A stretch of DNA of 64,000 nt from Watersipora subatra (taxonomy: Eukaryota). Every line of letters starts with the position of its first letter. The first letter of the stretch is position 1. The position numbers and the translations under genes are program-made. The notes under the pieces are model-generated. The model was not told the DNA's origin, did no database searches, and saw nothing but the letters and a program-made list of their open reading frames with translations. Of this stretch, positions 13,476-61,727 are shown piece by piece. The DNA lies in assembly GCF_963576615.1 (NCBI RefSeq), contig NC_088717.1, positions 57,890,749 through 57,954,748 on the forward strand. Direction: 5' to 3'.

Positions 13476-14210
13476 CTAAGCAGCTGTGAGATTCACCCTG
13501 TATGTGTAGAGTGAACCATCTTGAGGTGATACATAGCCGATAGATATAAGAATAACATCAACTATTGTCCAGACTCCTAGACCACCAAAGCTGAACAGTT
13601 TTCCAATTCCTTCCTTCCAATAGCCTAAATAAAACCTATCAATGCCGAACCCGCCTAATGTAACACTAAGCAAGAGTGTGATAGACCAACTATGACCCCT
13701 AGTCCAATGACATAGCCGGTTTTTATAGAAGTGCCGCTTACCAAAACACAAAGTAGTTGGCTTAACTGTACACCTAGATCGGTATACTCTACTGGAATAT
13801 GTTCCAACGGAATTGCAAGATGTATTAAATTCACAGTCATAGTCTTCCTGAGGAAGTTGGTAACAAAACACGCAGGTGAGAGTTCGGGAATGGTTTCTCT
13901 CTCCCTCACAAGGGACCGACTCCACTGGCTGTACATAAACGTCTGTTAGCTTCCCATAGTCACAAGTAGTATTACAACCAGGAATTTCCTTGAGACAATT
14001 GCCATCCAAGTGTTTACATTGAGCATTACTAGGACAGGGCGGATGGGGCGTCATGGTAGAAGTAACATTGCTGGCTCTTGTACTATTTTGAGGTATAGAT
14101 GATGTGCTTGAGCTGTACGGTTGTGATGATGTCCTAATATCTGTCATAGCCCAGGTAGAGTAGAAGGAAGTCATTGTAAACAAGGCTACTAGAGCTAGAT
14201 ATGAACCCAT
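13476..14210 (-). CDS. TM2D3: TM2 domain-containing protein 3 (TM2D3/almondex) ortholog. It is intronless and 244 aa long.
   Basis: There is one complete ORF with an N-terminal signal peptide (MGSYLALVALFTMTSFYSTWA), a Cys-rich ectodomain (TCVFCYQLPQEDYDCEFNTSC against human MTCRFCWQLPETDYECTNSTSC) and the TM2 domain signature WSITLLLSVTLGGFGIDRFYLGYWKEGIGKLFSFGGLGVWTIVDVILISIGYVSPQDGSLY. Human TM2D3 has ...LGGFGADRFYLGQWREGLGKLFSFGGLGIWTLIDVLLIGVGYVGPADGSLYI. Confidence 0.85.
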   Translation of the reverse strand: MGSYLALVALFTMTSFYSTWAMTDIRTSSQPYSSSTSSIPQNSTRASNVTSTMTPHPPCPSNAQCKHLDGNCLKEIPGCNTTCDYGKLTDVYVQPVESVPCEGERNHSRTLTCVFCYQLPQEDYDCEFNTSCNSVGTYSSRVYRSRCTVKPTTLCFGKRHFYKNRLCHWTRGHSWSITLLLSVTLGGFGIDRFYLGYWKEGIGKLFSFGGLGVWTIVDVILISIGYVSPQDGSLYTYRVNLTAA

Positions 14211-18295: not shown

Positions 18296-21200
18296 AGAAT
18301 AGAGAAAACATAATATTTTTATGCTTTATTAGTTATCTTTAGGTGTTGACTGATGTTATAAAAAAGAATCAAGGAGATTGACCCACTAGAAGCTGAAATA
18401 TAGCCAGCCAAACACAGGTCTACCTAATAAAGAATCAGAGGAAAACCCTTCGAAAATCCCGAAAACTGTGACGTATAAAATCGACTTAATGGTCATGTGC
18501 CGGAGTTGCGCACCCTTACCGCCGTTATGTATAATGATTGTTTTGGCTACGAGATGTGAAACGCTTCTCGCGATAGTAAATAATTTACAGACTAGCTCTG
18601 GTTTCTCAGAAAAATCAAGCAAACATTGTGTGGTAAAGGCATTTGCCCACAACCCCTCGCCGTGATTTTTCAAAGCAGAAGAGCAGATTTTGACTATTGT
18701 GCTTCAAATTTTAACTCGATCTCCACGGATATGCTCCGAAGATCCTCTGTTCAACGAACAGCGCGTGTATAGTCTATATGCGATATCCGCGAGTTGCAGT
18801 TTGTTTAGAATAAGAAATAGGAATGAGACTTTTTGTTCCTTCATCATTTTTCTAATGTGTATCTACTGCAGCATTCTTCTACTGTGTATCTACTGCAGCA
18901 TTCAGTTGATTTTCATGATTATCGTCACTATTAACGGACTGGAAGTTCACTACAGCCATAAGCTTAACAAGACTAACTTGACCGTGCTGCTCTTGCTATA
19001 AGAAAAGAAAGCGATAACTTTTGCTTTGATTTTTCTATTGATCTATTATCTTATCTATGATTATTTTTTATGATTTATATAATATTCATAATGCATATTA
19101 TACAAAATAATAATATAACTGCGTATAGAATAAATGATGTAACTAATATAATTTGTAGAAAATTCCAAATGGTAACCGAGATTGATGATTGATTTAATTG
19201 ATTCCATTTATTAGCTATAGTTAAAAAAATCTGAACAACGCTAAAGATGAGTCTGAATAGGGAAGCTAAGTAGGAGAACAACAAAACTGAGCTGAACTAG
19301 CAAGATAGCGAAATGTTGCGAAATAATAGATGCGTGTAATTATTTTATGCTAAAACTAATCTACACGTCAGAGGGACTGGTTCGGAATTCTAGGAGCGAT
19401 GATTATTAGGCCCAATTTGATTGTTCTATACTTCCAGGGATTAAATCAATTAAAACCCTGTGGTGCCTGGTGTGCCATATTTGGCACACCAACTGTGAAC
19501 CAAAACTAAGCCCATCAGCAATGTGAATTGGGCCTTTGTTCCTTGTTGCATGGCTGGGTGGGTCTTTTATGTTATGGCCCTACATTTTATAATGAATGGT
19601 TACCATACTAAGGCTCCTTTCTTAGTTCTTGAAGTCGGCCATTTTCTCGAAAGATTTGTACCTGTGAACACCCTGATATTCTTCTCTCCCATTCACCAGT
19701 TTCAAGGTATGTATTAGAACAATTGTGGTTTATTACATTAGAATACGCCTTACTTTTTCAGTCTATCATAAATTTATCTCAGAAATAATATATTTAATAT
19801 GTTTAACAATTGAGGGAATGTAGATGGGTCAAAAATGGCACGTTGGGAATTACAAGTCACTCAATATTCCAGTATGAGGCTGCTTAGTGAATTACTAAAA
19901 CAGCCATTCGTTACTAGAGTATTACTGACAACTGAAAAATAGATATCATAAATCTTGAAAGGCTGTTGTGCAACCATTTACAAGACAGTGTAATATTAAT
20001 TTCCTTTTTTATCTAATGTTTAGATTATAATGACAGACAAACAAAAGCAACTCACTGTTCAGAATGTGCTGGAAATAATTGATGGGGATGAAAGTGACTT
20101 TGGAGAGTTTGAAGAAAGTGATGATGAAGATTTTTTACCCGCACAAGATCAACCAAACGTATCTGTAAGTTTCCGTTTGAAATGATGCTAATGAGATGTG
20201 CATACATGTATTACAAACCCACATGTAGGCTGCATGTACTCATAAAATGGCTTTCAATTGTACTGCAGATCAAAAGTTCGTTTCAATTATATTGCAGATC
20301 AAAATTTTAGTGTAAAAAAACTTTTTTCATATTTGCTAATGCAAACAATGCTGTCATCAATAAATTGTAGGATGACAACTCGAGTGGCGAGGAAGAAAGC
20401 AATCTCCTATTGAATGAATTGGCAGTACCTGAAGCATGCAAACGAGACAAAAGTGTTCAACAAAGCCGACCTGTTTACAGGTGGAGGAAAAAAGATTTTG
20501 TTGCGCCTGATGTAGAGTATGCAGGTCTACCCACAGCACCACCTATAGATATTGTCACTCCTCTACTTTATTTTCAAAAATTCATTGGTATTAGCATGAT
20601 AGCAACCATTGCTGAACAAACAAACTTGTACAGTGTGCAGAAAAATGGGAAGTCAATCGATACCAGTAGCAAAGAGATCGAGCAAGTGATTGGGATGTTT
20701 CTGCACATGGGACTGGTACGGATGAGCAGCATTCGTCAATACTGGGAAAGTGAGTCGTCGTATGGGCCAGTCAGTGACATAATGAGTCGAAATCGGTTTG
20801 AAGCTTTACTCTTTTCACTACACTTTGTTGATAACATGGCCATGTCAGAAGAAGTAAGGCAAAAGGATAAACTTTGGAAGATTCGGCCAATTCTGGACAA
20901 CTTGCAACAAAGATGTCTAGCTGTTTCACCAAGTCAACATTGCTCGATTGATGAGATGATAGTCCCATATAATGGAAAAAAGAGCCCGATACGACAGTAC
21001 ATCAAAAGGAAGCCACATCCTTGGGGATTTAAGATATGTGGCAGAGCGGGAATCGACGGCTTACTTCATGACTTTGATGTGTATCAAGGAGGCGATGGAC
21101 AACGAACTGAGCTTGGATTAGGAGCTGATGTAGTTCTTAAGCTCACTTCAACACTAGCACCTGGAAAGAATCACAAAGTTTTTGCAGATAACGTCTTTAC

Positions 21201-22665
21201 CAGTCTTCCATTAATTGCAAAACTGAAAGAAAGAGGAATTCTGTATACAGGTACGGTTAGACAGAATCGGCTGAAAGGATGCCCTCTAAGTGATGAGAAA
21301 ACTTTGAAGAAGAAAGGCAGAGGATCCTTTGACTACAGAGTTGAAGACATTCATAATGTGGCAGCAGTCAGATGGTACGATAATCGTGCAGTCACTCTTC
21401 TATCCACTGAGGCTGCTGTCGAACCTATTGGAGAGGCCAAGCGCTGGGATAAAAAGCAAAAGCAGCAAGTGACAATTCCTATGCCAGCTTTGATTCGCAA
21501 CTATAACAGTTACATGGGCGGGATAGACTTGCTGGACTCATACTTGGCCAAATATCGATTTTTAATGCGATCTAGAAGATGGTACACTTACCTATTTTGG
21601 CAATGTATCATGATTGGTGTAGTCAACGCTTGGCTGCTGTATCGTCGCGACTGCCAATCATTGGAACTGCCTGCAAAGGAGGTGCTAAATAGACGAAGGT
21701 TTCAGGCAATTTTTGCTAGCAGTATGACGTAAGTAAATGCCGTCAAAAGAGGTAGAAGGTCGGCATCTTCTCAAGCGAGGCAGTCAGCTCCAAAGCGTCC
21801 ACGAGTTGGGCCTTGCGATGATGTGCGAAGAGACAGTTTTGGGCACTGGCCAGAGTTAATTGACAAAAGAGGGAGGTGCAAGCATTGCACAGATGGCAAG
21901 AGCACTGTACAGTGCCAGAAGTGCAATGTCCTGCTCTGTCTAAACAAAGACAGAAACTGCTCGAGGGCATATCATCTTTAGTTGGTGTTTAATTATATTT
22001 TTCTTACACGTGCGTGTGTTACTTATCATTGTCATTAGATTATTACTTTGTAATGTACATGTATGTTTTTGTTCACAGTAGAGCTGGTTTTTTATTATTC
22101 GTTTACTGGGTATTTGGCTATTGAAAACTATTATTATTATTATTGTTGTAACTGCTATTATAGTAATATTATACTTTTAATTTTCTTCAGTAAGCATTTG
22201 CATTGAAAGTGTTCATAACATAAAATCTGGGTTTATTTGGCATATCTGATTAGTTGTATCTATTACCCAATGTGCCAAATTTGGCACATTAAAAAAAATG
22301 CACAAAAAACAACTCTGTTCTTATAATGACATGTAGTATGGTAAAAGGGTGTCTAAATAGTCTGAAAGGCAAGCAGAAAAATTTTTTTATAGCATTATTT
22401 CTAGGTCTGGGTACTACAGGGCTAAAACGCCGTGATTGTTATAGGAGAGCTCATTAGTTGGCTTAATTGACCAATGGCACACAAGTCGATTTCATACGTC
22501 ATATATTGATGATTACCAAAACACTTATGTTTTTTGGTAGACCTGTGTTTGGCTGGCTATATCTCAGCTTCTGGTTGGTCAATCTCCTTGATTCTTTTTT
22601 TAGAACATAAGTCAACACCTCAAGATGAATAATAAAGCATAATAATATTATTCTTTCTCTATTCT
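18296..22665 (+). mobile_element. piggyBac-superfamily DNA transposon, 4.37 kb, flanked by TTAA target-site duplications. It has long (about 230 bp) imperfect terminal inverted repeats.
   Basis: TTAA lies at 18292-18295 and at 22666-22669. The termini are AGAATAGAGAAA... and ...TTTCTCTATTCT. 18296 to about 18525 is the reverse complement of about 22435 to 22665 at roughly 85% identity, including GACGTAT(A/G)AAATCGACTT. Internally it encodes a piggyBac transposase. Palindromes GTGCCA(T/A)ATTTGGCAC sit near both ends of the internal region (19465 and 22272). Confidence 0.85.
20038..21981 (+). pseudogene. piggyBac transposase gene. Exon 1 is 20038-20163 and exon 2 is 20371-21981, the latter including the C-terminal Cys-rich domain. 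There is a single in-frame TAA at 21730-21732.
   Basis: Exon 1 (MTDKQKQLTVQNVLEIIDGDESDFGEFEESDDEDFLPAQDQPNVS) ends at donor gtaagt and exon 2 starts at acceptor ttgtag, both in phase 0. Exon 2 carries piggyBac hallmarks: YRWRKKDF...P...EQTNLYSVQ, MSRNRFEALLFSLHFVDN, a DDE core and KYRFLMRSRRWYTYLFW. After the TAA the same frame continues into the C-terminal zinc-finger domain (HWPELIDKRGRCKHCTDGKSTVQCQKCNVLLCLNKDRNCSRAYHL*). Confidence 0.8.
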
Positions 22666-26700: not shown

Positions 26701-29023
26701 AGCCATTTTCAAAGTGAATACTTAGTGTAAAATCTCAAAATCTTTCTAATTATGAATTAATACCATGACTGGTTATGCTATGTCTTCCCCCTGTCTTAAA
26801 CATGAGTATCTGCCTATCTGGATTATTACGCATGAGTGTAAATAACTAGTAATGACTTCTTGTCTTCTTAACATAGTTGCGTAGAAACATTTTTAATTGT
26901 GTCATCAAAGATAGCAACTATTAAAATCATGCTTTCAATGTCGGTCCTGCAGTTTCATTAAAGCAGCCACACTACTCAATTTGCATAGCGTAATTATTTA
27001 GTTTGTATAGTAGCGTTTAACATGATACAAGTTATACAACTTAAAAGTATACAAATTATATAATGTACATATAATGTCCAACATACAGTAAAACTGTTTA
27101 ATAAATGATTTTTTCTTAATAACAAGATCTATGTTGTTACAGAGAATGGACTACTCATAGAGGTATTTCTAGGCTTCTTTTTTCATAGAGTTATTAAACA
27201 TGAATACTCACCTACATTGTATAAATCTATAAAGGATGAGATAGATGTCGCCTACAGCCTTTCTTTCTCACCGGATGGCTGCCTCATCTATGCTGGCTCA
27301 ACCAAACAAATCAGCGTATTTGATGTCAGCCAGCCTGGTCGGCAGATTGAGAATGTGAAGACGCATAAGCGTCGGAGCACAGGACAGATTGGCATCATTT
27401 CCTGTTTCGATTTTCTACCAGCTGAACAGCTGTTTGCCGCCGGGAGCTATTCCAAATCTGGTTGGTCACTTTTTTAGATTTGCTTCCAGAAAGTGGCATA
27501 GCCTAAAATTGCCATCTGATTTACTATTTGAATGATTTGTAACTTGCAATGTTTACCTTTGGAGTTGGCCAATAGAATTCAATGTGAAACAGTCGATGGT
27601 AATACAGTCAAACCTTAATTTATGATCATCTCTAAATGTGGACTTGTCAACATACAATGTAAAATTTGAGCAAATATCCGCCTTTACATGAGAAGTGATT
27701 TTTAACATACGACTGTTGAAGTTTTTCGAAACATAGTATTTTTATAAATCAGTACATTCTATTTCATAGAGTTTACTTTTACATTCGTAAATCAGTAGAT
27801 ACAATGTATATCGGCAGTTTCTTTCACATCCATACAGGTTGGTTCTTCGTCAAATAACATTGACATTTCCTTCATATCTTCATGTTATAGTTGTAAAGTG
27901 ATCCCGAGGGGACTAGTGAGCGAGGTAGTTAGTAGCATTAGGTAGTTAGTAGCATTAGGTAGTTAGTAGCATTAGGTAGTTAGTAGCATTAGGTAGTTAG
28001 TAGCATTAGGTAGTTAGTAGCATTAGGTAGTTAGTAGCATTAGGTAGTTAGTAGCATTAGGTAGTTAGTAGCATTAGGTAGTTAGTTGCAAATTGGTAGT
28101 TGGAAGCGAAACAACAAATAATAAAGTCACATGGGCATCTTTCTATAATTTCTCTAAAAATCACTAGTAATTCTTTTAAACAGTCTGTTAAATTTTGTGA
28201 TGCAGAAGGTGGCAGCATTGCCGAGAACAATCCTAAAATGAATAACATAGAACAGCTACCTGTGATACTTGAAGATAAAATGTAAAAATTGTTTGATTTA
28301 GTCCGAGTTGGACAATCTCTGTATTTCTACTAGTATCTTTACCTACGCACTATACTTCTACTGTATTACCACGGTTACACCTCAACAATATGGCCAAGTT
28401 TTCAATAATTATACAAAGTGAACATAAAAAGCTTATTTTTATTCACGGTTACTTTATTTCTTTAGTTTGTACTTACAAATGTAGTTATATAATTCTATTA
28501 TGAATCATCTATGTACTGTACCTATAATTACTGGAGGTAATTTTCATCAAGTTTTTGAGCTGTGAATGAAATGAAATTCAACGTATTATTGTATGAATAT
28601 TTTTCCAGCACATGAAATTTTAACATATGAAGCAAAATCAGCACTTACCAACCTTGTATGTCTGACTGTAAAAGATTGTTGATCAGATATTTTTTAGTTA
28701 GTTATCAATGAACATAGATATCTGCAATGGAAATAATAACTAAACAATTGGTATTTCATTATTGACCAGTTGTCTGCTACAAGTTACTTTGACTTACTAC
28801 TTGGATTACTGGTGGCTATCACGATTCATGAGTGCAGATGATGCAACTCTGTATATTGTTTAGGTATCAGACTTTTGTAGCAGGTGGTGAGAGTGCAAAA
28901 TTACTCACAAAGCTGCTCAATGTAGGCCTTCCTTTAGTAGTAGTGACTATTTTCTAGTTCACAAGCGGCTATCTCAGGGTATAATAACTTGGTTTTACAT
29001 GTTGTATATATGTGTGTAGATAT

Positions 29024-31139: not shown

Positions 31140-31309
31140 ATAGCTATCAGATAATTAGTTTTGTTACTAGGTTTATTATATAGGTGAACTGTGTTGTTAC
31201 TAGGTCTATTATATAGGTGAACTGTGTTTTTACTAGCTGTATTATATAGGTGAACTGTGTTGTTACTAGCTGTATTATATAGGTGAACTGTGTTGTTACT
31301 AGGTCTATT
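31140..31309. repeat. Minisatellite with a 34-35-bp unit (tattatataggtgaactgtgttgttactaggtc). This is the left half of an array that a transposon has split.
   Basis: Five tandem units are visible. The same unit resumes at 34231-34462 in the same orientation. Confidence 0.9.
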
Positions 31310-34230
31310 CTGCCCATGTCTGGCAAAACACTGTATCTCAAAAATTTTCAATTTTCACTTTTTTACATATTTCACATCTAAATAGTGTTCCCTGTCTTGT
31401 CCTAAAATATTTTGGCTCAAAAATCATTCATTAGCGTAGTTTCAACCCTGGTGAAACAATACATCACCGTTGCGTCAAGACGTTATGTCTGACAAAACAA
31501 TGCATCTTAACGCACTCACTATGATTGTGTTAACTGCTTTCAGTTAGAAGTATCATGTTAGGGACTGATAAGATTACCCATACTGGTTCGATACAAAATT
31601 CCAGACACCAATCCTGGTGATGAAGAGATTTTTAGGTGTCAATTTGAAGCTTGTTAGAAACACACAATACTAATATTTAATGTTTTTCTCTACTACGTCA
31701 GTTAGTAAATGTGACTCGAGTAGTCAACTACACAGCTTCATGAGCATGGCATATTCAAATATATCTGTAAACCACAAACGATCTTTGAGTGATACAGCCC
31801 AAAGTGGTGTCTCTTCCGCTGATGGTAAGTTTACTCAAATTACACTGCGAGGGTTTTTCTTACTATTATTTAAAGTCTACCATACGTACAATTAAGTTGA
31901 ATCTTTTTACTTCAGCTGATTATATGTTGGCTTGTGTTACAGCAGCCGAATCTCAAGATGCAAATTCAACTAAGAAAATCCGTTCCGAACAAGACAAATA
32001 TGAACGAAACATCCGAAAATACCCACTCCGACCTCCCTGTGCTTGTAAAGACAAATGCTGTGAAAAACTAAATCCGCGGGGCCGCATTGCAGTGTGGATG
32101 GAATTTAGGAAAAATGCTACAATGACCGAAAAGGAGTGTTGTGGAGCTTGCTAGATCGTCAACCTACAAAAGGTTCGGGTACCTCCAGATCTTGGTATGT
32201 GAAGTACAACCTAATAGCCGACGATGGAAGTAAAGTCCAAGTTTGGGAAGCTTTTTTCTTAGCTACTTTCGGTTACCCTACATCCAGCTCTGTCATACAA
32301 GAGCTCCTAAAATCAGATCCATACCTGTTGGCCCCAACACCCGACAAGCGAGGCAAGACCACTCCTCACCATGCTTTGACTGATAGCGATGTTGAGCGCA
32401 TAAAATCACATATACGGTCATACAATCCTTGCATATCGCACTACCGTCGATCACATGCACCAAATAGGTTGTATCTGCCTAATGAACTAACAGAGAAAGA
32501 AATGCATTCAAATTTCATTCAACGCTATCCACGCTACCAATGTTCGTACGAAACATATTGTCGACATATACGGAAGCTCAACATCTCATTTGTGAAATTA
32601 GGAGAGGAGCAATGTGAGTTGTGCCTGGAATTGGATGTTGGGATACATGACACCGACAAGAGCACCGGTATCTGTAGAACTGACTGTAGCTTGTGCGAGA
32701 GAAAAGCCAAACATAAGGCAGAATACACACTGGCCAGGAGTGAATACGAAAATGAGATTAGTAAATTAAAGGAAGGCAAAATCGTTCGAAGCATTGACTT
32801 ACAAAAGGTCATAATGCTGCCAAGATTGCCAGGTGTTAAAACGGTTTGCGTCACAAAACGCATCATTGCTTTCAATGAAACGTTTGCACCAGTGAAAGCA
32901 TATTTGTCCAGAGCCAAAAACATTTGTATTGTCTGGCATGAAGGTCTGGCTGAACGAAGATGTGAAGAGATAACATCTATGTACATGAAAGCACTGGAAG
33001 TCGATCGAGATTATGATGATATTGTTTATTTTATGGACAATTGTGCGGCGCAGAACAAAAATTGGAATTTAATAACTGCGATGGTAAGTCTTATGAATTC
33101 TGGAAAGATGCAAGCTGACACAGTCACCTTCAAGTACCTTGAGGCTGGGCACACCTTCATGTCAGCAGACACAGTGCATGCTGGTGTAGAAAGAGAAATG
33201 AAGGCAATGAAAAATTTATACGACTTTAATGACTTCATAGAGTGTGCGAGCAGGGTTTCGAAAACATCAGTGCTGGTTCCTGTCAATGAAGATTTTCGTC
33301 GCTTTGTCGGAGGACAAAGTCAAGCAAAGCTAAGTAAAGATTGTCCCCGCCTAGCTGAATGCAGAGTGATTCAGTTTCGAAAGAACAGCTCATCAGTTTG
33401 GCTCAAGAAATCGCACGATCAATCTCAGTTTCAAGAGTTGGATTTCTTGAAAAAAAAGCACAGTCTAACTGACGAACCACTAATGATGAGAGAGAGGCCA
33501 AGGGGCATTACTGATGAGAAGAAAACTGACATTGTTGCGAAACTCTGCCTACTGATGCCAATGAATAGACATAGATTTTGGTCCTACCTTAATGCTTCAG
33601 ATGTACCCGATCTTATCTCACAGGATGACTAATTGCTGACACACCGTGATCTACATGCATTAGATGATTGTTGAAAACATAGTTTAAAAAAGTGCACAAC
33701 GTGGCATGACAAGCTGTAGATTTTGTACCACATTGTACAACAAACTGCAGAACTAGAATTGCAAGTTATTTTTTGTGTTATATTATTATTTTTATTACAA
33801 GTTATTTCATGTTACATCGCAATTGCTGAAAAGAAACAGTTGTTCCTGAATTCGGTCTGTAGTAAGCTGTATCAAACCATTAAATGTAAATATAAAGTGT
33901 TGTGTCAGTTATGTTCATCATCTAATAAATAGCTAATTGTCTGGAGAAACACTGCATCAGAGTGATGCGTTGTTATGTCAGGCAATGGGGATAAAGTACA
34001 GCAATTAGTGATTGTCGGGCAAAACACTTTATCATTATTTTTTTGCAAAAAAAGAGTTTGAACAAAAATTTAAGAATGCTCAGTGAGTAGAGTGCACTTT
34101 TCTGGATAGAATGGTATATAACTTTACTAGGCTCGAGCAACCGTAGGCCGTGGCTGATGCTAAACACGTTTTGCTCATTTACCGAAAGTTTGCAATTTAT
34201 GAGATACAGTGTTTTGTCAGACATGGGCAG
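31310..34230 (+). mobile_element. Unclassified TIR DNA transposon, 2921 bp, with 30-bp terminal inverted repeats and an apparent 4-bp TATT target-site duplication. It inserted into a minisatellite.
   Basis: The left end is CTGCCCATGTCTGGCAAAACACTGTATCTCA. The reverse complement of the right end is CTGCCCATGTCTGACAAAACACTGTATCTCA, with one mismatch. The flanks ggtcTATT|...|TATTatatagg rebuild an uninterrupted minisatellite unit. It encodes one large transposase-like ORF. Confidence 0.8.
31740..33632 (+). CDS. Putative transposase of the 31310-34230 element, probably DDE-type. Exon 1 is about 31740-31824, followed by a GT-AG intron, and exon 2 is 31916 to about 32154. The main ORF at 32136-33632 is in a different frame, so there is one frameshift or an unrecognised splice.
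   Basis: Exon 1 (MSMAYSNISVNHKRSLSDTAQSGVSSAD) ends at donor gtaagt and exon 2 starts at acceptor ttacttcag. The N-terminal C-x-C-x3-C-C cluster is PPCACKDKCCEKL. The main ORF has a second cluster CELCLELDVGIHDTDKSTGICRTDCSLCERKAKH. The candidate catalytic residues are D (RSIDLQKV), then D about 80 aa later (YFMDNCAAQNKNWN), then E 34 residues after that (FKYLEAGHTF). The D-x5-NK spacing is reminiscent of the IS1595/Merlin DDNK signature, and the DD34E spacing is reminiscent of Tc1. Neither assignment is confirmed. Confidence 0.55.
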
Positions 34231-34462
34231 TATTATATAGGTGAACTATGTTGTTACTTGGTTTATTATATAGGTGAACTATGTTGTTACTAGGTTTATT
34301 ATATAGGTGAACTCTGCTGTTACTAGGTTTATTATATAGGTGAACTGTGTTGTTACTAGGTTTATTATATAGGTGAACTGTGTTGTTACTAGGTTTATTA
34401 TATAGGTGAACTCTGTTGTTACTAGGTTTAAGATATAGGTGAACTCTGCTGTTACTAGGTTT
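34231..34462. repeat. Minisatellite with a 34-35-bp unit. This is the right half of the array split by the transposon.
   Basis: About 7 units of tattatataggtgaact(g/c)tg(t/c)tgttactaggtt are visible. Confidence 0.9.
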
Positions 34463-34840
34463 TGCAGAAAGAACTTAAATACTAGATTTAAGTATAAACA
34501 GGTTACAAGTATAAATAGATTTACTATGAATACTAGATTTAACAAATCTATTTTAGTTTTCATCCCACCCTTGCCATGCTTGCATCGTGCTCGGGTCAAA
34601 GGTCACACCATTTAAATGAAGCCGAGTCGGATGAGTCTGAAGAAGATTCAGTTTCAATACCAGATAACTCTATAAGGCTTTGGTGGCTCGGGGCATAAGT
34701 TTCACCTTTTATGCTATGAGGTGAGGCCTAAGGCTACATTGAGTGAGGCCCAAGGCTGTATTGCGTGAGGCTCATCTATAAAGTCTACCAGCATTTAGAA
34801 AGGCTGGTATTGCACAAGTTTTACTAGCTATGCTTAGACA

Positions 34841-35207
34841 GTCGCCCTACTACCTTTTCTCATCCATGTTGTTTATAAACAGTCGCCCTACTACCTTTTC
34901 TCATCCATGTTGTTTATAAACAGTCGCCCTACTACCTTTTCTCATCCATGTTGTTTATAAACAGTCGCCCTACTACCTTTTCTCATCCATGTTGTTTATA
35001 AACAGTCGCCCTACTACCTTTTCTCATCCATGTTGTTTATAAACAGTCGCCCTACTACCTTTTCTCATCCATGTTGTTTATAAACAGTTGCCCTACTACC
35101 TTTTCTCATCCATGTTGTTTATAAACAGTCGCCCTACTACCTTTTCTCATCCATGTTGTTTATAAACAGTCGCCCTACTACCTTTTCTCATCCATGTTGT
35201 TTATAAA
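34841..35207. repeat. Minisatellite with a 44-bp unit (cagtcgccctactaccttttctcatccatgttgtttataaa) in about 8.5 copies.
   Basis: Near-perfect tandem copies are visible. Confidence 0.95.
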
Positions 35208-38195: not shown

Positions 38196-38600
38196 AGCGA
38201 ATCATGTGTGTAAGGCATGAACACATTTTACTATCTAGCAAACCGTGTGTGTAAAGTATGAACACATTTTACTGTCTAGTAGAACATGCATGTAAGGTAT
38301 GAATGCATTTTACTATTTTATAAAGCATGCATGTGAAATCTGAACACATTTTATTATCTAGGAAAGCGTGTGTGTAAAGTATGAACACATTTTACTGTCT
38401 AGTAGAACAAGCATGTAAGGTATGAATGCATTTTACTATTTTATAAAGCATGCATGTGAAATCTGAACACATTTTATTATCTAGAAAAGCGTGCGTGTAA
38501 GGTATGAACACATTTTACTGTCGAGTTGAGCATGCATTTAAGATATGAACCCATTTTTCTATCTAGTTAAGTATTTGTGTGAGGTATGAACACATTCTAC
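38196..38600. repeat. Higher-order tandem repeat with a roughly 120-bp period, built from roughly 30-bp sub-units (gtatgaacacattttact.tctag...).
   Basis: Repeated blocks are visible. Confidence 0.85.
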
Positions 38601-39171
38601 GAGACTTTAAAACGTCTCATCTATGCTTAGAGAGAAAGAGTGCTAGTACGTCGTGTATATCTCTATGGTCAAACCTTTTATTGGGTTTCCCTGCAGTAGA
38701 ACATTCTCTGGCTTACATGTTATCTTAACATACACCCACATCTCTTCTTTATCTTCTTCATCTCTTTAACTTCTTCTCTATTAATAGGCAGCATGCTCTG
38801 GTGCATGGCTGTCGTTAAAGAAAAAGAGAACGGAACAGTTTGAGCGTGTCACACGTCACGCCACCGCTACTTTAATCAATATTTCTTTATTTAGCTAACA
38901 CCAGTGGTTAATTAATTTACTTTTGTAAACTTAAGTCTTCCTCAATAGAACTCTATGAGCGACTGTCATGTACCGCTGAAAATATTCAAATGCGTTGAAC
39001 ATTCTGCATCCTAAAGGTATTTAAATACATTGTACAAAGCGACGTCGTAGCAGCACAATCATTGGACATGAATACGCTACTGAGTGCTAACAGCACTCCT
39101 ATGCAGTGTCTGGGTTGACTGTTGGTTGATTCACCTTCATGCACTTAGAGGTGTTTGGACTATCATATTGA

Positions 39172-39740
39172 CTTAAGAGGTAGACTGTCATATGGATATG
39201 TCATATTGACTTGAGAGGTAGACTGTCATATGGATATGTCATATTGACTTGAGAGGTAGACTGTCATATGGATATGTCATATTGACTTGAGAGGTAGACT
39301 GTCATATGGATATGTCATATGGACTTGAGAGGTAGACTGTCATATGATATGTCATATGGACTTGAGAGGTAGACTGTCATATGATATGTCATATGGACTT
39401 GAGAAGTAGACTGTCATATGGATATGTCATATGGACTTGAGAGGTAGACTGTTATATAGTCTTGGGAAGTAGACTGATGTATGGATATGTCATATAGACT
39501 TGGGAGGTAAACTGTTGTATACACTTGAAAGGTAGACTGTCATATGATCTTGAGAGGTAGACTGTTATATGGACTTGGGAAGTAGACTGTCATATGGATA
39601 TGTCATATTGACTTGGGAGGTAAACTGTTATATGGACTTGAGAGGTAGACTGTTATTTTGACTTTAGAGGTAAACTGTCATATGGACTTGAGAGGTAGAC
39701 TGGCATATGGTCTTGGGAAGTAGGCTGTGATATAGACCCA
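39172..39740. repeat. Minisatellite with a roughly 37-bp unit (gacttgagaggtagactgtcatatggatatgtcatatt), about 15 copies with decay toward the 3' side.
   Basis: Tandem copies are visible. Confidence 0.9.
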
Positions 39741-42700
39741 GAGGTGACTGAGGTATGTGCATGGAGGTAGGCTGTGATATGGACTCAGAGACTGGCATGA
39801 ATCTGTACCCTATGTTGCTCTTTACAGACATTTGTCAGTTGAGCACAATATGAGTTGCTGTGTTGTAGTAGCCATGTTTACTAGGTCAACAATTGATAGC
39901 GATCAACTGTTTGTTGCTTAAAATTGTAGTTTATGCTTCAGCACACTTGGTTTTACAACAATTGTGTGTGACGATTAACACAAAGTTTTATTACAGCTGT
40001 GTGTGACAACTAACACGGCATGTTTTATAACAATTGTGTGTGACGATTAACACAAAGTTTTATTACAGCTGTGTTTGACGACTAACACGCCACGTTTCCA
40101 TCATTTAACCATTTAGCGCATTAGTTTACCTTATTTGTGTAATCCGACTAATGTGTCAGAACTGCATTTTCACTTACCGAGGTCGCAGTTTCACATGTAC
40201 GCAGTTCACTGACCCATGAGCATCTTCATTACCCTGAGTCAATCAGTTTTGTATAGCTAATGAGATTTGCCGAGAAGCTGTTTCCCAGACACCATCTGTC
40301 ACCTGTCATCGCTGGTCATTCACTCTCCTCGCTATTTCATTGGTTCCGTTATTTCTACCTTTTTGTACATTCGCGTGAGAAACGTCAGCATTCTGCGCTT
40401 GAACTGTACATGTGAAAGTTGAAGATGTTTCTATCACAATCACAAGTTTCTTGAACAAGGAAAAGACTACTAGTTATTTTTTTATTATTTTATTTACAAT
40501 AATTTTATTTCAATCATTGCAAACAGAAGGGTTTATTGAATTATGCCATACTAAAAACATAAAAAGATAAAAGTTAGTTGATGAAATCAATGGTTTCGCT
40601 TAAGGCATTAAAAATGCCTTTTATTATTAAGAAAACGGATATGAAGTGGGGCATTGTTAAAGGAGCAAGCGAGGATATTTTCAAAATAATTGTTAGAAGT
40701 TGTATGCAGTTTGTTCATATCACGTAAGTTGAAATGAGTTGAAAACCTGTAAATGTAGTTGTATAGTAGTCTGAATAATGTATCTTTATGTCTATAAGCA
40801 AGAGCTCTGTAGAATTAACCTTGAACTTTACCCTACATACTTGATACTGATTAGACATTCATCTGTCAGAAGACTATTAAAACATTAAATGAAGCTAGTC
40901 AAGGAATGACGCTAGTAATTTTGTGATCATGCCATCATTTCCTAGTCAATAAGAGATGACTGCGCTGCTTCAGTAGGTCATGAATATGTATAAAGTCTGG
41001 CGGCTAGGTGACAGCTGTGTGACTACCATTATATCTGTTTACACCATGACAATCAGATGCAAGATTGGTTAATATCAAGAAACGGCAGGGTGGTATAAAG
41101 CCTTCTATAGGTTTCAGTTTAATGTGCTTTTAAGATTGTCTCTGCATACAATAAAGGTATTCAAACAGCAAAATATCGAAAGCATTGTAGAATAGCGTAT
41201 ATGTGTCGACAAACTTAATATTTTTATGGATATGTGATCGAACATACTAACAGCTAGTAAAATATTTGTAGCGTACATCGTATGAATTTGTCATGAGACA
41301 AGCTTTCGGTTTTTTTAGCCTAAAAACATTAAAATATTTATAAAAATCTCGCGCCACGGTTTTCAACGAAACATGACTACACATGCTCTTAATGTCAATG
41401 AGGCCTCCCCAACTCAGTTATTGTGTGCCCTTGTGTACTCTAATAAAGGGAAAAGCTACCATAATTCTCTTAAAATTCTAAGGGGTACGTGATTGGAATC
41501 TGACCACCTCACATGCACCTCAACTACATCCACCCTATGTGTAGGGAATCCAATAGCATGCTTTGCGCAGCATCAAAAGAAACACTTGAACAGCTTGTAC
41601 TAAAGATAATGTCAATTTCACGCAACAAGTTGTTTTACGCAAATGCATTTGTCTCAAGCTATATATACATGGATTTACTAAGATGTTCATAACGCTTAAC
41701 ATGTATGCCATCTATTGTCCACCATTAATTCTCAATTGCTTGTGAAAGTGGTTGAACCTATAACGCATCCACTAGCATTTGTTGATTGCACAGGAAGTGG
41801 TAGTCTATTCATATTACGTAATTATGTAAAATTAGCCTAAATAACTTAAGTGCTAAGCAAGGTCCTTAAGCAGGGCTTTTAAACATAGTTCTTTAAAAGT
41901 GGTCTGCGCAGCTTCAAATCCTTCAGAGATTGTAATTTGATGAACTAGATTAGCTGGCAGCAATGAGCGGTGGGGGATAACCATTCTTGGGGTGAGGACA
42001 GCATCACTGATTCAGACAGCATTCTGCCTTTTATTACAAGACCTTAGATAAAATACCAGGAGTACACTGGCGCATATATTGTGAAGCAGTCGTTGAATTT
42101 TACAAGAGAAATTGGTCTAGAAGCTTCTTTTGTTCAAAAGCATGTTGAGAAGTTGTCTAATTTTCTAATTGACAGATTCGTTAATAATTTAAAAGTTATT
42201 CAAATGCTTACAATTCGTAGGTAATTTTTTATTGTATTTCCAAATTATTTTAGTAATGAGTCATGATTGAGAGATATTTATGGAAAAATCATGTTTATAT
42301 CATCTTTGATACAGACTATAATCATAAAGAGAGGAAGCTAACACGGAAGCTATGTTACCTCTATGTTACTTCGGCTGTAAGACCTCTAAGTACAAAGAAC
42401 TATGATCAACTTTAATCTGGTTGGGTCATTATTAGTAGTTATCATCTTCCGACACTGATGTTGGTAATAAAGCCAATAGCCTTAGCCCTAGGTCTCGCAC
42501 CACTCATAGCAATACTATTAGCTTATTCTAGCGAAGTGTTATACTGCGATAAGAGATTAGCATTACGCATGTACAACAGTTTACAATATTATCTGAACAC
42601 TGCATGGAGTTAGAACCCAATGTTCATTTGCTCTAATATCATATTATATGGAGTCCTCTTTGCGCTGTCTATATATGTACTTGCACCTTCATGTAGACAC

Positions 42701-53875: not shown

Positions 53876-56633
53876 ATGTTACTTGCAGGTGTAAAGTACT
53901 TGGATGAGTGTCCCAAGGAACCATTCCTACCCATATACTTGTTAGTTGGTGGGTGTTTTACTACTCTTAAAATGTTTACTATTCTCTGGAGACAGATGAG
54001 AGAGCGCAAGAACTCTGACTCATATGATGGGGCAGGTAGGTTGTCTCTTCTATTTTTCTTTTATTATTAGCATTCTATTAATGCTTTCATATACTTAATC
54101 ATGTTGTATTATTTACTTATACTAAAGGTGTCTTTGCACAAAGTTAAAATTCGAAGATAAGCACAGATTAGTTAATGTGGCAAAGCAGTTATGCTCTCAC
54201 ATGCAATTCAACATACAGCATGTGTAACACTGCACATAAACTGTATGTGTACTGTATGTGTACAGTATGTGTGCAGCAAGTATATTGTTTGTGTACATTG
54301 TGTCTGTAGCATGTAAATTGTATGTGTACATTATGTGTGCAGTATGTATATTGTACGTGAACAGTATGTCTACAGCATGTATATTGTATGTGTGCAGTAT
54401 GTGTATTGTATGTGTACATTATCTATAAACTTGACAAATAGCTCAGTCTGTTGTTTGCTTCTATAAGCATGAAATGCTCATTGCTCTTTGTAGACGGAGA
54501 GAGCAAAAGTGATTTTATCACTAACAGATCGACCCAGTTTACTGATGCGGTGCTTAGCCTTTTCCTCTTAGCTTGGTTTCTTTATGGCAACTACCTGACC
54601 TGGTCTATATTTATGCCAAACTTCTCAAGACAACTCCACTCTCCGTCTGATTGGTTAGTATTTTTACCTCTTTAACCTGATTGGCTAGCGTTTGGATTCC
54701 AACTACTTTGTTATGTTTTTCGTTTCATTAGATAGCAAGATAAGGTCTGAGTAAATCACTGGATTTAGCTTTTTCCATCTTTTCAATTTCCATCAACCTG
54801 TTTAATTCTTCCTTAGCAAGGTGAGGTTCTCATAGGTTTTTCTGTTGAAATGTTCTTTGTCATCAAGACATTTTATGCTAAGGTCAGTAAATATTTAATT
54901 GTAAACATAATTTATATATTTATAGCATAAATTATAAGTATATATCATCAACTCTTAACCTTATAAACAACATCAACTCATAAGCAATATACAACATCAA
55001 CTCATGAACTAATATAAACATCAACTCATAAACTAATATACAAATCAACTCATAAACTAATACAAACATCAACTCATAAACTAATATAAACATCAACTCA
55101 TAAACTAATATACAACATCAACTCATGAACTAATATAAACATCAACTCATAAACTAATATACAAATCAACTCATAAACTAATACAAACATCAACTCATAA
55201 ACTAATATAAACATCAACTCATAAACTAATATAAACATCAACTCATAAACTAATATAAACATCAACTCATAAACTAATATAAACATCATCTCATAAAATA
55301 ATGTAAACATCAATTAATAAACTTATATAAACATCAACTCATAAACTAATATAAACATCAACTCATAAACTAATATACAACATCAGCTCATAAACTAATA
55401 TAAACATCAACTCATAGACTAATATACAAATCAACTCATAAACTAATACAAACATCAACTCATAAACTAATATAAACATCAACTCATAAACTAATATAAA
55501 CATCATCTTATAAAATAATGTAAACATCAATTAATAAACTTATATAAACATCAACTCATAAACTAATATAAACATCAACTCATAAACTAATATACAACAT
55601 CAGCTCATAAACTAATATAAACATCAACTCATAAACTAATATAAACATCATCTCATAAAATAATGTAAACATCAATTAATAAACTAATATAAACATCAAC
55701 TCATAAACTAATATAAACATCAACTCATAAACTAATATAAACATCATCTCATAAAATAATGTAAACATCAATTAATAAACTAATATAAACATCAACTCAT
55801 AAACTAATATAAACATCATCTCATAAAATAATGTAAACATCAATTAATAAACTAACATAAACATCAACTCATAAACTAATATAAACATCATCTCATAAAA
55901 TAATGTAAACATCAATTAATAAACTAATATAAACATCAACTCATAAACTAATATACATCATCAACTCATAAGGTAATTTAAACATCAACTCATAAACTAA
56001 TATACAAATCAACTCATAAACTAATACAAACATCAACCCATAAACTAATATAAACATCAACTCATAAACTAATATACAACATCAACTCATAATTGTCTAG
56101 CACACATTGAGCCAATGGCTGTGTACTGATGCAGCATACTCTCTACCACCTTACATACATAACATGCACATGTAACATAAGGCATTTTGCTTGCAACAAA
56201 TGCATAAATACCTATAGTTTATTTTATCTTCATTTTATTGTACTATATACGATATACTCGCTTCTCTCTTCTCTGGTGCCTAAATTTATTTGCAGTAAAA
56301 ATCGACACTATAATATTATTTGTAACTAGAAGATACACCATGTAGTATCACAGTTTTTTGCTATCTAGTCAATATTGACTGTAGAGATGTCACACTATAA
56401 CTACAAATATCATTAGTATTGCTAGCTGCTAGAAGTAATACGTGATGTCATGGTTTATATATATATATCTTTTACAGGTGTGAGAAGTCCCTCTACATGT
56501 TTTGTGTCATACAGATCATCTGCTGTTACTCTGCTTTTATGATTTTCCTCTTGACTCTTGTCTGTCTTGGCTGTGTGCGCCATATCTGCTGCTTTCGAGA
56601 CCGGCATACAATAGAACAGATCAGCCGCTCATA
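53876..56633 (+). CDS. Small four-helix transmembrane protein gene with three exons (53876-54035, 54494-54653 and 56478-56633), about 160 aa.
   Basis: The product is MLLAGVKYLDECPKEPFLPIYLLVGGCFTTLKMFTILWRQMRERKNSDSYDGA | DGESKSDFITNRSTQFTDAVLSLFLLAWFLYGNYLTWSIFMPNFSRQLHSPSD | WCEKSLYMFCVIQIICCYSAFMIFLLTLVCLGCVRHICCFRDRHTIEQISRS*. Donors g|gtaggt and tg|gttagt and acceptors ttgtag and tttacag give consistent phases 1, 2 and 2. There are four hydrophobic helices. The family is not assigned. Confidence 0.5.
54190..54420. repeat. Minisatellite with a roughly 40-bp unit (gtatgtgtacagtatgtgtgcagca-like).
   Basis: Tandem units are visible in intron 1 of the 4-TM gene. Confidence 0.8.
54945..56090. 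repeat. Large minisatellite of about 1.15 kb with a 25-30-bp unit (aactaatataaacatcaactcataa), about 40 copies. It lies in intron 2 of the 4-TM gene.
   Basis: Visible in the sequence. Higher-order variants (..atcatctcataaaataatgtaaacatcaattaataa..) recur with a roughly 110-120 bp period. Confidence 0.95.
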
Positions 56634-59338: not shown

Positions 59339-61727
59339 TTATTGTTGATGTGATGTACAGTTTTTAAATTCACGAACAGCCTTTGGTAAAAAGCTGTTGT
59401 GATAAACAGACGTTCTTGCATATATAGTAGGAGGATCGCCTCTTCCAGCAGCTCGTGTGACAGTCGTACTAACTTGGTCCTGCATTAATTCATCATAGGT
59501 GGTAATTAATGAGTTGTGATTTTGGTCAGAGGAGAGGAGTCGCATTAGCGGATTTTGTCTACTGACCTTCCGTCTTTCACATAGTGTTTGCATATTTAAA
59601 GTATCTAAAGCTTTGGTGATGCTATCTCTTTCTTTCAGTTTACATATAAAACGTAGTGCGTTGTTTTGCACCATTTCAAGTTCATGTTGTAGTAGCTTAG
59701 TAGAAGGGTCCCACACAGTGGAGGCATACTCAATATGTGGCCTGCAAAGACTAGTATATGCTAAGAGTTTGGCCTTTTCAGGAGCTTTATATAGCACACG
59801 CTTAATCATGCCTAACTGCTGTCTCGCCCTTCTGGCTTTGGAGTCTATATGTTTGTCAAACTTCAGGTTAGATTGTAGGATAACACCTAGGTATTTGGTT
59901 TCTTCAACTATTTCTAATTGTTCAGTGTCTAGGAAGTATTCAGCTGAGGGAGAGTTATTTTTGTCATTAAAAACCATGACAGAGCACTTAGATACATTAA
60001 ATAGCATTTTCCATTTGTTAGCCCATGATTCCAGGGCATTAATGTTTACCTGAAATCGTTGTTTATCAGCATGGCAGTTTACGGGTTGGTATATCAAGGT
60101 GTCATCTGCAAATAAACTAATATTACAGTCAACTTGCTGGGGCAAGTCATTAATATAAACTAAAAACAGTGTGGGACCTAGCACTGATCCCTGTGGAACT
60201 CCAGATGTGACAGCTAGTTCATCGGATTTATGTCCATCAACTACCACCCTTTGTTTTCTGGCCATTAGGAAGTCATGTATCAACATAAGAATTTTATCAT
60301 CTATGTCAGATATACTGGATAACTTGTTCATCAAGAGTTGGTGAAGTACTTTGTCGAAGGCCTTTGCAAAGTCTAGTACTACGGCATGAGTGGTATCTCC
60401 CTGGTCGGTGCTGCGTGCAATATCATGATAAGTACTACACAGCTGAGTTTCACAAGAAAGGCCTTGCCTAAAACCATGTTGTCTACTGTGCAGTACTTTA
60501 TCAAGTTTATCATTGAGGTGATGTAGAATAATGTGCTCCATGAGCTTACAAGGGATGCTTGTCAGTGAAATTGGCCGGTAGTTGTTTATTTGGTTGTATG
60601 CCCCACGCTTGTGGAGTGGTGCTACATGAGCTAATTTCCATTTGGTTGGTAACTTGGATGTTTTATATGATTCGTTATATATATATGTGAGACATTTGGC
60701 AGTCATTATTGGATCAATTGTAAGGTCTTCCTTTCTCAGTCCATCTGGACCTGGTGATTTTCCATTTTTTAAGCTATATAATAATTTCAATACGCCCTCA
60801 TAAGTAATGGAGATGTTATCGTTATCACATTGTGTACGTTGATTAATCGGGGGTAAGTTGATCTTCAGTACAAAATTGTTTATGAAAGAAACTATTGAGC
60901 AGGTTTGCACATGTAACTGGCTCTTCAGTAATGGTGTCATCATTGTCAATAAGCTTCATAGCTGGTTTGGTGGAGCTTTGCATCCATTTCAAGTGACGAT
61001 AAAAAGGCTTACTATTTCCCGATTCCAGAGGTTTACATATTTTATTGTACAAGTAACTTCGTTTAATTTCTCGAAGTTTATTTTTACCAAGCCTCCGTTC
61101 TTCTTTCTAACGCTTGAGATAGAATGAGTTTGATGTTTTCTTAAACAGATTGTAAGTTTTTCTATGTTTGTTGACTAGTTTCCTAGCTTCTTTATTGAGC
61201 CATAAAGGCTCTTCCTCATTTGCCTTGTGTATTATTTTGACTGGGACTGTTTTATTGACTGCATTTATTAGTTGTTCAGTAAACAGCTCCCACATTTCTT
61301 TAACATTGTGCATTACACTTAGTTTAGCTTGTGTAGGAAACAGAAGTTCCTGAAAAAGGTCAATGTCTGCTTTTTGATAGAGCTTTTTTGGTTGCATATG
61401 CACACGCTTGTTCGATTGGCTAAGTTGTATGTCAGCGGTGATAATGTAGTGATCACTAATACCTGGAGTAATTATTTCCGCATTTATTTCTGATGGATTT
61501 GTAGTGCAGATAAGGTCTAGAGTGTTTCCTAGGACATGAGTAGAGTCATTGATAATTTGTAACAAGTTATTTTCATCTAGGGAAGACTGAAACTGCTGAT
61601 GTAGTAGCTTATATTGAGTATTTGGTTTAATAATACCTTGTTTCCAGTCAAACCCTGGAAAGTTCATGTCACCAACAATCAAAATATGGTCCTGTGGATA
61701 TTTGTTAAATACATAATTGTAATACAT
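59339..61727 (-). mobile_element. Non-LTR retrotransposon (LINE, CR1/L2-like) ORF2. The C-terminal half of the apurinic endonuclease domain is at 61107-61727 and the reverse transcriptase is at 59339-60949. It is 5'-truncated and has two frameshifts, so it is a dead copy.
   Basis: The endonuclease carries the motifs ILIVGDMNFPGFDW...SDH. The RT carries KSPGPDGL, RPISLTS, VLDFAKAFDKV, SGVPQGSVLGPTLF, FADDTLIY and a C-terminal YHNSFLP motif. The linker ORF at 60843-61052 is in a third frame. The N-terminal half of the endonuclease is absent at about 61740. Confidence 0.85.

Follow-up and report, generated by a model that had tools for sequence, protein, structure and literature searches.

A nearly intact DNA transposon occupies positions 31310-34230 of the window, the 64-kb stretch of Watersipora subatra DNA analysed here, and is very probably a cut-and-paste element of the Sola superfamily, Sola1 group, whose insertion has interrupted a 33-bp minisatellite. 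It is a new member of an already known, very widespread animal family. An earlier note on this DNA had rightly recognised a transposon with terminal inverted repeats (TIRs) and an RNase H-fold DDE/D transposase. Its suggestion that the element was unclassified, and a candidate new family, fails because the protein matches a transposase family already known, and the target-site duplication (TSD) is the one expected for that family, an outcome that the note itself had named as counting against the idea: the catalytic core is homologous to Repbase Sola1-1_AP and to a Sola1 protein of Acyrthosiphon pisum.

Element architecture and insertion site

The element is 2921 bp long and is bounded by 31-nt TIRs that differ at a single position (30/31 identical), the left at 31310-31340 on the forward strand (CTGCCCATGTCTGGCAAAACACTGTATCTCA, with its CTGCC terminus) and the right at 34200-34230 on the reverse strand. 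In inverted-repeat and shuffle analyses, these two places hold the window's only occurrences of the TIR sequence CTGCCCATGTCTG[G/A]CAAAACACTGTATCTCA, against an expectation of 0 (100 shuffles), and the inverted repeat extends beyond the TIR (86% over 50 nt). A direct repeat of exactly 4 bp, TATT, flanks the element at 31306-31309, where the left flank ends in ...GGTCTATT, and at 34231-34234, where the right flank starts with TATTATATAGG.

The surrounding minisatellite is split by the insertion into 4.5 units on the left (31161-31309, 93% matches) and 7 units on the right (34231-34462, 95% matches), both with a period of 33 according to TRF. Deletion of the element together with one TATT yields TTGTTACTAGGTCTATTATATAGGTGAACTATG, which differs by one mismatch from the satellite consensus, the expected empty site being ...GGTCTATTATATAGG.... 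The element length, nearly perfect TIRs, TATT duplication and restored repeat unit described in the earlier note are all borne out by these sequences, as is the interruption of the minisatellite, whose period it had put at 34-35 rather than 33 bp.

A 20-nt TIR core motif (GTCTGACAAAACAATGCATC) is present in five copies with at most three mismatches, all within the element and none in the rest of the 64 kb. These include subterminal copies on the forward strand at 31487-31506, on the left side, and at 33939-33958 and 34014-34033, near the right end, the last of which was recovered by inverted-repeat analysis as well as by the motif scan. A comparable motif occurs four times in the relative L002, and the subterminal copies are putative transposase binding sites. 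Comparison of the element with the remaining window by blastn and tblastn gave chance-level matches only. A true piggyBac ORF, unrelated to the Sola1 transposase, lies elsewhere in the window (20410-21732); the ends of this neighbouring piggyBac-like element were sought and could not be resolved. A further ORF of the window, with a TM2 domain, has its one identical copy in an ENA metagenome assembly, and its best named relatives, from molluscs, a brachiopod and insects, are ∼50% identical.

Transposase gene, catalytic core and proposed mechanism

Homologue alignments define an intronless Sola1 transposase gene at 31924-33632 on the forward strand, encoding ∼569 aa once a single frameshift is repaired. 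The long unbroken stretch of the ORF is 32136-33632 (498 aa), and the frameshift falls within a run of five A's (A5, 32109-32113, forward strand) that has one A fewer than the homologues' reading frame. Restoring one A in this run, with translation from the ATG at 31924, gives a 569-aa protein that aligns end to end with the 570-aa relative P0002 at 53% identity, unbroken across the repaired site (FRKKCYNDRK vs FWAMDYNSRK).

The one frame discontinuity had thus been noticed correctly in the earlier note and misplaced near 32140. The same note had proposed a protein of roughly 600 aa, a size now corrected, and an intron-containing gene (31740-31824 joined to 31916 onwards, with an intron at 31825-31915). 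We reject the intron model because the ATG at 31924, the first of the upstream ORF, opens a product collinear with P0002 from residue 2, and because relatives are called as single ORFs; the intronless ORF suffices. Unless the A was lost through a homopolymer error in the assembly, this 1-nt deletion early in the gene, close to its 5' end, prevents the copy from encoding transposase at full length, and its movement would depend on enzyme supplied in trans.

The transposase carries the motifs YFMDNCAAQNKNWN and KYLEAG, two Cys clusters and a D-x34-E spacing (D301 to E336), all as previously listed. Its RNase H-like catalytic core spans residues 215-357 of the 498-aa ORF (32778-33206, forward strand, as for all residues given here) and contains three candidate catalytic residues, D221 (32796-32798), D301 (33036-33038) and D345 (33168-33170), which are invariant across 23 aligned sequences; E336 (33141-33143) is likewise conserved. 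A confident AlphaFold model has the RNase H fold for which structure prediction had been proposed as a check, and its nearest structures are retroviral integrases and the Mos1 and Sleeping Beauty transposases. In this model E336 sits in the loop immediately after b5, and D345 lies two residues into the helix following the b5 loop, as does E152 in HIV integrase. Because of these positions and the invariance of D345, the third catalytic residue is likelier to be D345 than the E336 implied by the D-x34-E reading, which would give the DDD triad in an RNase H-like fold that is expected of the Sola superfamily.

Our account of DNA binding, catalysis and the staggered cut is inferred from how other RNase H-fold DDE/D transposases work. 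The ∼569-aa protein would recognise both the 31-nt TIRs and the 20-nt motif repeated subterminally, probably through its N-terminal region and Cys/His clusters, and would pair both element ends. D221, D301 and, most likely, D345 would make up the RNase H-like active site that cleaves the ends. The 3' ends would then be joined to target DNA whose strands are cut 4 nt apart, and repair of this stagger would produce the TATT duplication.

Relatives and assignment to the Sola1 group

The transposase is one of a very large family of animal proteins, with 15,560 cluster representatives matching at E<=1e-3; a homologue search returned 829 homologues. Elsewhere, the closest relatives reach at most 61% protein identity, and no other copy of the same exact family was found. 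The element of the 61% relative (L001) is cut by a contig end, the Logan contig L002 begins 1 nt inside the homologous terminus, and a search for TIRs in L003 and L004 gave no convincing ones. The CTGCC terminus is common to at least 13 related elements, whose termini read CTGCC[C/G], and perfect 4-bp TSDs flank 8 of the 12 independent insertions with both flanks, compared with ∼0.05 by chance.

Among the homologues in animal genomes, many carry the plain annotation 'uncharacterized protein', as might be expected if the ORF were a gene of the host, or had been domesticated from a transposase, and lay between chance inverted repeats. This reading is almost certainly wrong, given TIRs of a length unexpected by chance, an exact 4-bp TSD with a restored empty site, a frameshifted ORF, copies of the TIR motif inside the element, and termini and a TSD length that recur in relatives from other organisms.

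A Pfam search with the window protein returned DUF7869 only, below its cut-off, with no match to PF13843, PF00665, PF01359, PF13358, PF05699 or PF13359 or to any other Pfam transposase family, and nothing meaningful was matched by sequence in the PDB. A 4-bp target duplication is likewise made by piggyBac and Kolobok, which target TTAA, and by Ginger, which has an rve integrase domain. Both Pfam and the TSD uphold the earlier view that the element, with its 4-bp duplication other than TTAA, has neither the domain nor the target site of piggyBac (TTAA), Tc1/mariner (TA), hAT (8 bp) or PIF-Harbinger (3 bp). These results, together with motifs unlike those of the same four groups, would also suit a transposon superfamily that is new and has no relation to any known one; that reading is nonetheless highly improbable, being already refuted by specific, direct homology to Sola1 cores, and this enormous family, found across many annotated animal genomes, has a 4-bp TSD and conserved D, D, D residues that are the exact definition of Sola. 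'Poorly described', another phrase of the earlier note, is apt in that the Pfam label is just DUF7869, a name for which a literature search found nothing, and in that no solved structure is found by sequence, but the superfamily is a known one.

The Sola superfamily was reportedly described in 2009 by Bao, Jurka, Kapitonov and Jurka. Our descriptions of its features are drawn second-hand from the passages on Sola in PMC10741241, PMC3845634, PMC5751038 and PMC4455052; the first two define it by its DDD transposases and its 4-bp TSDs, and PMC10741241 puts the elements at 2-9 kb and their TIRs at 11-1124 bp. In Majorek et al. 2014 (PMC3985635) the Sola1 group is the RNase H-like clade E.10, and our references for Sola1-1_AP, Sola2-1_HM and Sola3-1_HM, all 125-aa core fragments, come from supplement file 5 of that paper. 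The element has the TIRs and the TSD so described, and its transposase is homologous to those of Sola.

Over its whole length, the Sola1-1_AP core aligns with window residues 217-340 (BLASTP E 4e-9; hhalign probability 97%, E 8e-11), though at only 27% identity across the core. With phmmer, this core matched 228 of the 248 family proteins (best E 4e-17) and the Acyrthosiphon pisum Sola1 core 233 of them (best E 6e-19), and both gave 0/120 matches among control proteins. In contrast, the Sola2-1_HM and Sola3-1_HM cores matched none of the 248. The Pfam matches of both Sola1 cores were to DUF7869 only, the same family as that of the window protein, and searches with the Sola2 and Sola3 cores gave no DUF7869 match. 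Since the Sola1 cores match the family strongly and the Sola2 and Sola3 cores match nothing, we place the clade inside the Sola1 sequence neighbourhood; by this core-fragment comparison the transposase is nearer to Sola1 than to Sola2 or Sola3.

Features in common with the Sola1 group include the core motifs DL-KV, KR, W-E, RG, EI, DNC-GQN-N and LE-GHT, the conserved D, D, D residues, a single transposase ORF of ∼570-630 aa, the TIRs, 4-bp TSD and 2-9 kb size, and a metazoan distribution. Sola2 and Sola3 share the 4-bp TSDs and belong to the same superfamily through published PSI-BLAST linkage; hhalign brings out a weak local similarity to Sola2 near the second Asp (D-C-GQ-KN, with E 0.0036 and a probability of 9%), and neither the Sola2-1_HM nor the Sola3-1_HM core matches the window protein significantly.

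Target choice departs from what is reported for Sola1. An AWWT consensus is presented as a Sola1 hallmark in the relevant passage of PMC3845634, citing Bao et al. 2009, whereas the window TSD is TATT and just one (AATT) of the eight clade TSDs (TATT, AACA, TATA, AATG, ATCT, TATA, AATT, AGTG) fits. Position 2 is A in 7/8 and position 3 is T in 6/8, with AT as the central dinucleotide in 5/8. The termini also differ, being CTGCC... here and GGACCG... (GGACCGTTTATTT) in the insect Sola1 family of PMC3845634. Taken with the modest identity to the Sola1-1_AP core (27%), these departures would fit a Sola lineage apart from canonical Sola1, a subgroup not yet described that has CTGCC termini and, in place of AWWT, a looser target preference for a central AT. 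We consider such a separate lineage unlikely: the two Sola1 cores match the same Pfam model and reach about E 1e-17 to 1e-19 on family members in single-sequence phmmer searches in which Sola2 and Sola3 yield nothing, great variability is reported among Sola TIRs (PMC10741241), and Repbase holds many Sola1 families, of which two core fragments were compared here. AWWT is, moreover, a statistical preference of some families and not the group-defining criterion, which is transposase similarity, and eight TSDs are a small sample.

Implications for annotation and transposase reconstruction

Under the Sola1 assignment, the locus is to be masked in genome annotation as DNA/Sola-1, not as a new transposon class or a host gene. 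Pfam DUF7869 corresponds to the catalytic core of Sola1 transposases, and labels thousands of 'uncharacterized' animal proteins. The element belongs to a widespread clade with a CTGCC terminus and 4-bp duplications, without the reported AWWT preference.

Young and almost intact, this copy is a reasonable starting point for reconstruction of a Sola transposase, an incremental gain whose value stems from the fact that we know of no Sola transposase with a solved structure, and that a literature search found no biochemical work on any. It is conceivable, if doubtful, that the CTGCC-terminated clade is an uncatalogued Sola1 sublineage with a relaxed N-A-T-N target preference, and that the present near-intact copy (one A short, TIRs matching at 30/31, TSD intact) comes from a recently active family; were that so, the repaired copy could become the first experimentally tractable Sola transposase.

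Element termini and minisatellite context

The window element spans 2921 bp (31310-34230), with CTGCCCATGTCTGGCAAAACACTGTATCTCA at one end and its reverse complement, differing by one G/A mismatch, at the other. A pattern search located this terminal sequence at exactly two sites in 64 kb, as against none in 100 dinucleotide-preserving shuffles, and the inverted repeat continues more weakly out to 50 nt. The earlier note had the element splitting a minisatellite of 34-35 bp period; the satellite does flank both ends (31161-31309 and 34231-34462), with a period of 33 bp according to Tandem Repeats Finder. The left flank terminates in ...GGTCTATT and the right flank opens with TATTATATAGG, giving a direct repeat of exactly four bases, TATT (31306-31309 and 34231-34234), as the target site duplication (TSD); deleting the element in silico together with one TATT yields a satellite unit one base off consensus. 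Because excision with a single TATT rebuilds the unit and the repeat is exactly four bases long, both termini and the 4-bp TSD are fixed to the base, bearing out the single-base resolution previously claimed and, with small corrections, confirming the original observation. Besides the two terminal inverted repeats (TIRs), the 20-nt TIR core recurs at 31487, 33939 and 34014 and nowhere else in the 64 kb; a relative on contig L002 carries four copies of a similar motif, and these repeats are probably transposase binding sites.

Minisatellites are unusually abundant in the window (28 Tandem Repeats Finder rows scoring at least 150; examples at 54946-56092, 34838-35207, 27923-28090, 38209-38600 and 39163-39785), including a 24-bp unit present in 47.5 copies and a 41-bp unit in 9 copies (99% identity) ∼400 bp downstream of the insertion. 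A 440-aa open reading frame (ORF) at 20410-21732 (+) with a full-length piggyBac-type transposase domain (PF13843, E 1e-77) represents a second, unrelated DNA transposon; inverted-repeat analysis around this ORF did not locate element ends or a TTAA duplication. A reverse transcriptase ORF at 59339-60949 (-) (PF00078, E 9e-37) and, upstream of it, an endonuclease-like ORF at 61107-61727 (-) (PF14529, E 6e-6, slightly below cut-off) make up a non-LTR retrotransposon copy. An intronless 244-aa TM2-domain ORF at 13476-14210 (-) is TM2D3/almondex-like: an identical protein is encoded on ENA metagenome contig ERZ6864376:c_000000005173, and the best named relatives (Lottia, Ostrea, other molluscs, Lingula, insects) are ∼50% identical.

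Affinity with Sola1

A Pfam search with the window protein returned DUF7869 (PF25273) alone, slightly below cut-off, at 33021-33206, and the same domain is matched by 23/23 aligned family members; a PDB sequence search with the protein gave no match. Relatives are numerous: a word-indexed search produced 829 matches, among them proteins annotated as ‘uncharacterized’ from fishes, beetles, a limpet, a wasp and a leafhopper. When 1.84 billion representatives were searched with a profile, 15,560 matched at E<=1e-3, of which 2,394 reached E<=1e-30.

As references, we used the RNase H-like cores in supplement file 5 of Majorek et al. 2014 (PMC3985635), comprising the Repbase elements Sola1-1_AP, Sola2-1_HM and Sola3-1_HM, and an Acyrthosiphon pisum Sola1 protein from the same supplement. 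The Sola1-1_AP core aligned over its full length with window residues 217-340 (BLASTP E 4e-9, 27% identity; unless stated otherwise, residues here and below are numbered in the 498-aa ORF), sharing the motifs DL-KV, KR, W-E, RG, EI, DNC-GQN-N and LE-GHT, and matched the family profile in hhalign with 97% probability (E 8e-11). Sola2-1_HM gave a weak local match near the second Asp (probability 9%), and the Sola3-1_HM core gave none. With local phmmer, the two Sola1 cores matched 228/248 and 233/248 proteins of the family, with best E values of 4e-17 and 6e-19 respectively, and 0/120 unrelated controls; Sola2 and Sola3 cores matched no family protein. In Pfam, both Sola1 cores match DUF7869 and no other entry, and the Sola2 and Sola3 cores lack a DUF7869 match. 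DUF7869 appears to be the RNase H-like catalytic core of Sola1 transposases, a domain for which our search of the searchable literature found no mention.

PMC10741241 characterizes the Sola superfamily by DDD transposases, 4-bp TSDs, lengths of 2-9 kb and TIRs of 11-1124 bp, and every feature listed there is also found in the window element; Repbase recognises the subgroups Sola1, Sola2 and Sola3 (PMC4455052). Core homology and these features place the element in the known Sola1 group, of which the window copy is a young-looking, frameshifted member; they do not support its reading in the earlier note as unclassified or a candidate new family.

The transposase, its reading frame and predicted fold

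The 498-aa ORF at 32136-33632 contains the motifs quoted previously, and a second frame upstream encodes ...RKYPLRPPCACKDKCCEKLNPRGRIAVWMEFRKN. In the homologue alignment the upstream frame matches through EFRK and the main frame from CYNDRKGVLWSLL onward, which locates the frame switch in the A5 run at 32109-32113; one discontinuity had indeed been noticed, although near 32140. Adding one A to this run, and starting at ATG 31924 (the first of the upstream ORF), produces a 569-aa protein, rather than one of ∼600 aa; its residues 2-569 are 53% identical to the full 570-residue sequence of the relative P0002, and the alignment runs ungapped across the repaired site. Because of this full alignment the intron previously proposed at 31825-31915 is unnecessary: the gene can be read as one intronless ORF, as in the relatives, which are likewise single ORFs. 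The sole lesion of the frame is a 1-nt homopolymer deletion, either a genuine mutation or possibly an artefact of the assembly; as assembled, the copy cannot encode a full-length transposase. Substitutions at family positions at least 90% conserved (W37, C to W in VCKxFF; V239, F to V in FTKRI; E273, G to E in AGR) suggest some decay besides the frameshift.

In an AlphaFold2 model (mean pLDDT 82.2), predicted strands (b) and helices (a) follow one another as in an RNase H fold: b1 (215-227), b2 (243-252), b3 (262-268), a1 (276-289), b4 (295-300), a2 (310-320), b5 (329-334) and a3 (343-357). Upstream of this core lie Cys/His clusters, PC-C-C close to the N-terminus and CxxC...CxxC...H at residues 160-193. 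Three invariant acidic residues, D221 on b1, D301 directly past b4 and D345 at the N-terminal end of the helix following b5, occupy the positions expected of catalytic residues and are candidates for that role. The D-x34-E spacing reported earlier is real, and is supplied by E336, ∼90% conserved and in the loop after b5; as third catalytic residue, E336 is a less likely candidate than D345, which is invariant, lies two residues into the post-b5 helix, as does HIV integrase E152, and is consistent with the DDD published for Sola.

End binding, excision and staggered integration are established for DDE/D cut-and-paste transposases. By analogy, the transposase would bind the TIRs and subterminal repeats and excise the element, which would integrate at a 4-nt staggered cut whose repair would generate the TSD.

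A CTGCC-ended clade

We scanned the termini in 80 related metagenome-contig loci, and in contigs carrying individual homologues. At least 13 independent elements, with proteins 32-55% identical to the window's, have CTGCC[C/G] at both ends, and a CAAAACAC-GTA block is also common to many of them. In three independent short-read contigs, L002 (1-30), L057 (1) and L009 (6914), one contig end coincides with the CTGCC terminus of a related element or falls 1 nt within it, the pattern expected where assemblies break at the borders of multi-copy repeats. Perfect 4-bp TSDs (TATT, AACA, TATA, AATG, ATCT, TATA, AATT and AGTG) accompany 8 of the 12 insertions with both flanks, versus ∼0.05 expected by chance; the relatives' termini and TSDs confirm the mobile unit. 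A related Sola1 element on contig L008 (3528-7867, encoding P0020) lies in a 12-bp palindromic target, TGCC-TATA-GGCA (TSD TATA), so that its inverted repeat seems to run 8 nt past the true CTGCC terminus.

Zhang et al. 2013, citing Bao et al. 2009, describe an AWWT target as a hallmark of Sola1, and the insect Sola1 family in that paper ends in GGACCG (PMC3845634). In contrast, the clade of the window element ends in CTGCC, and among its eight TSDs AATT alone fits AWWT. An A occupies position 2 in 7/8 and a T position 3 in 6/8, which in this small sample (n=8) resembles a preference for AT at the centre. The non-AWWT targets and the 27% core identity leave room for a distinct sublineage inside Sola1. 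Worth recording are the apparent link between DUF7869 and Sola1, an annotation gap, the conservation of CTGCC at the ends of these elements, and their targets outside AWWT.
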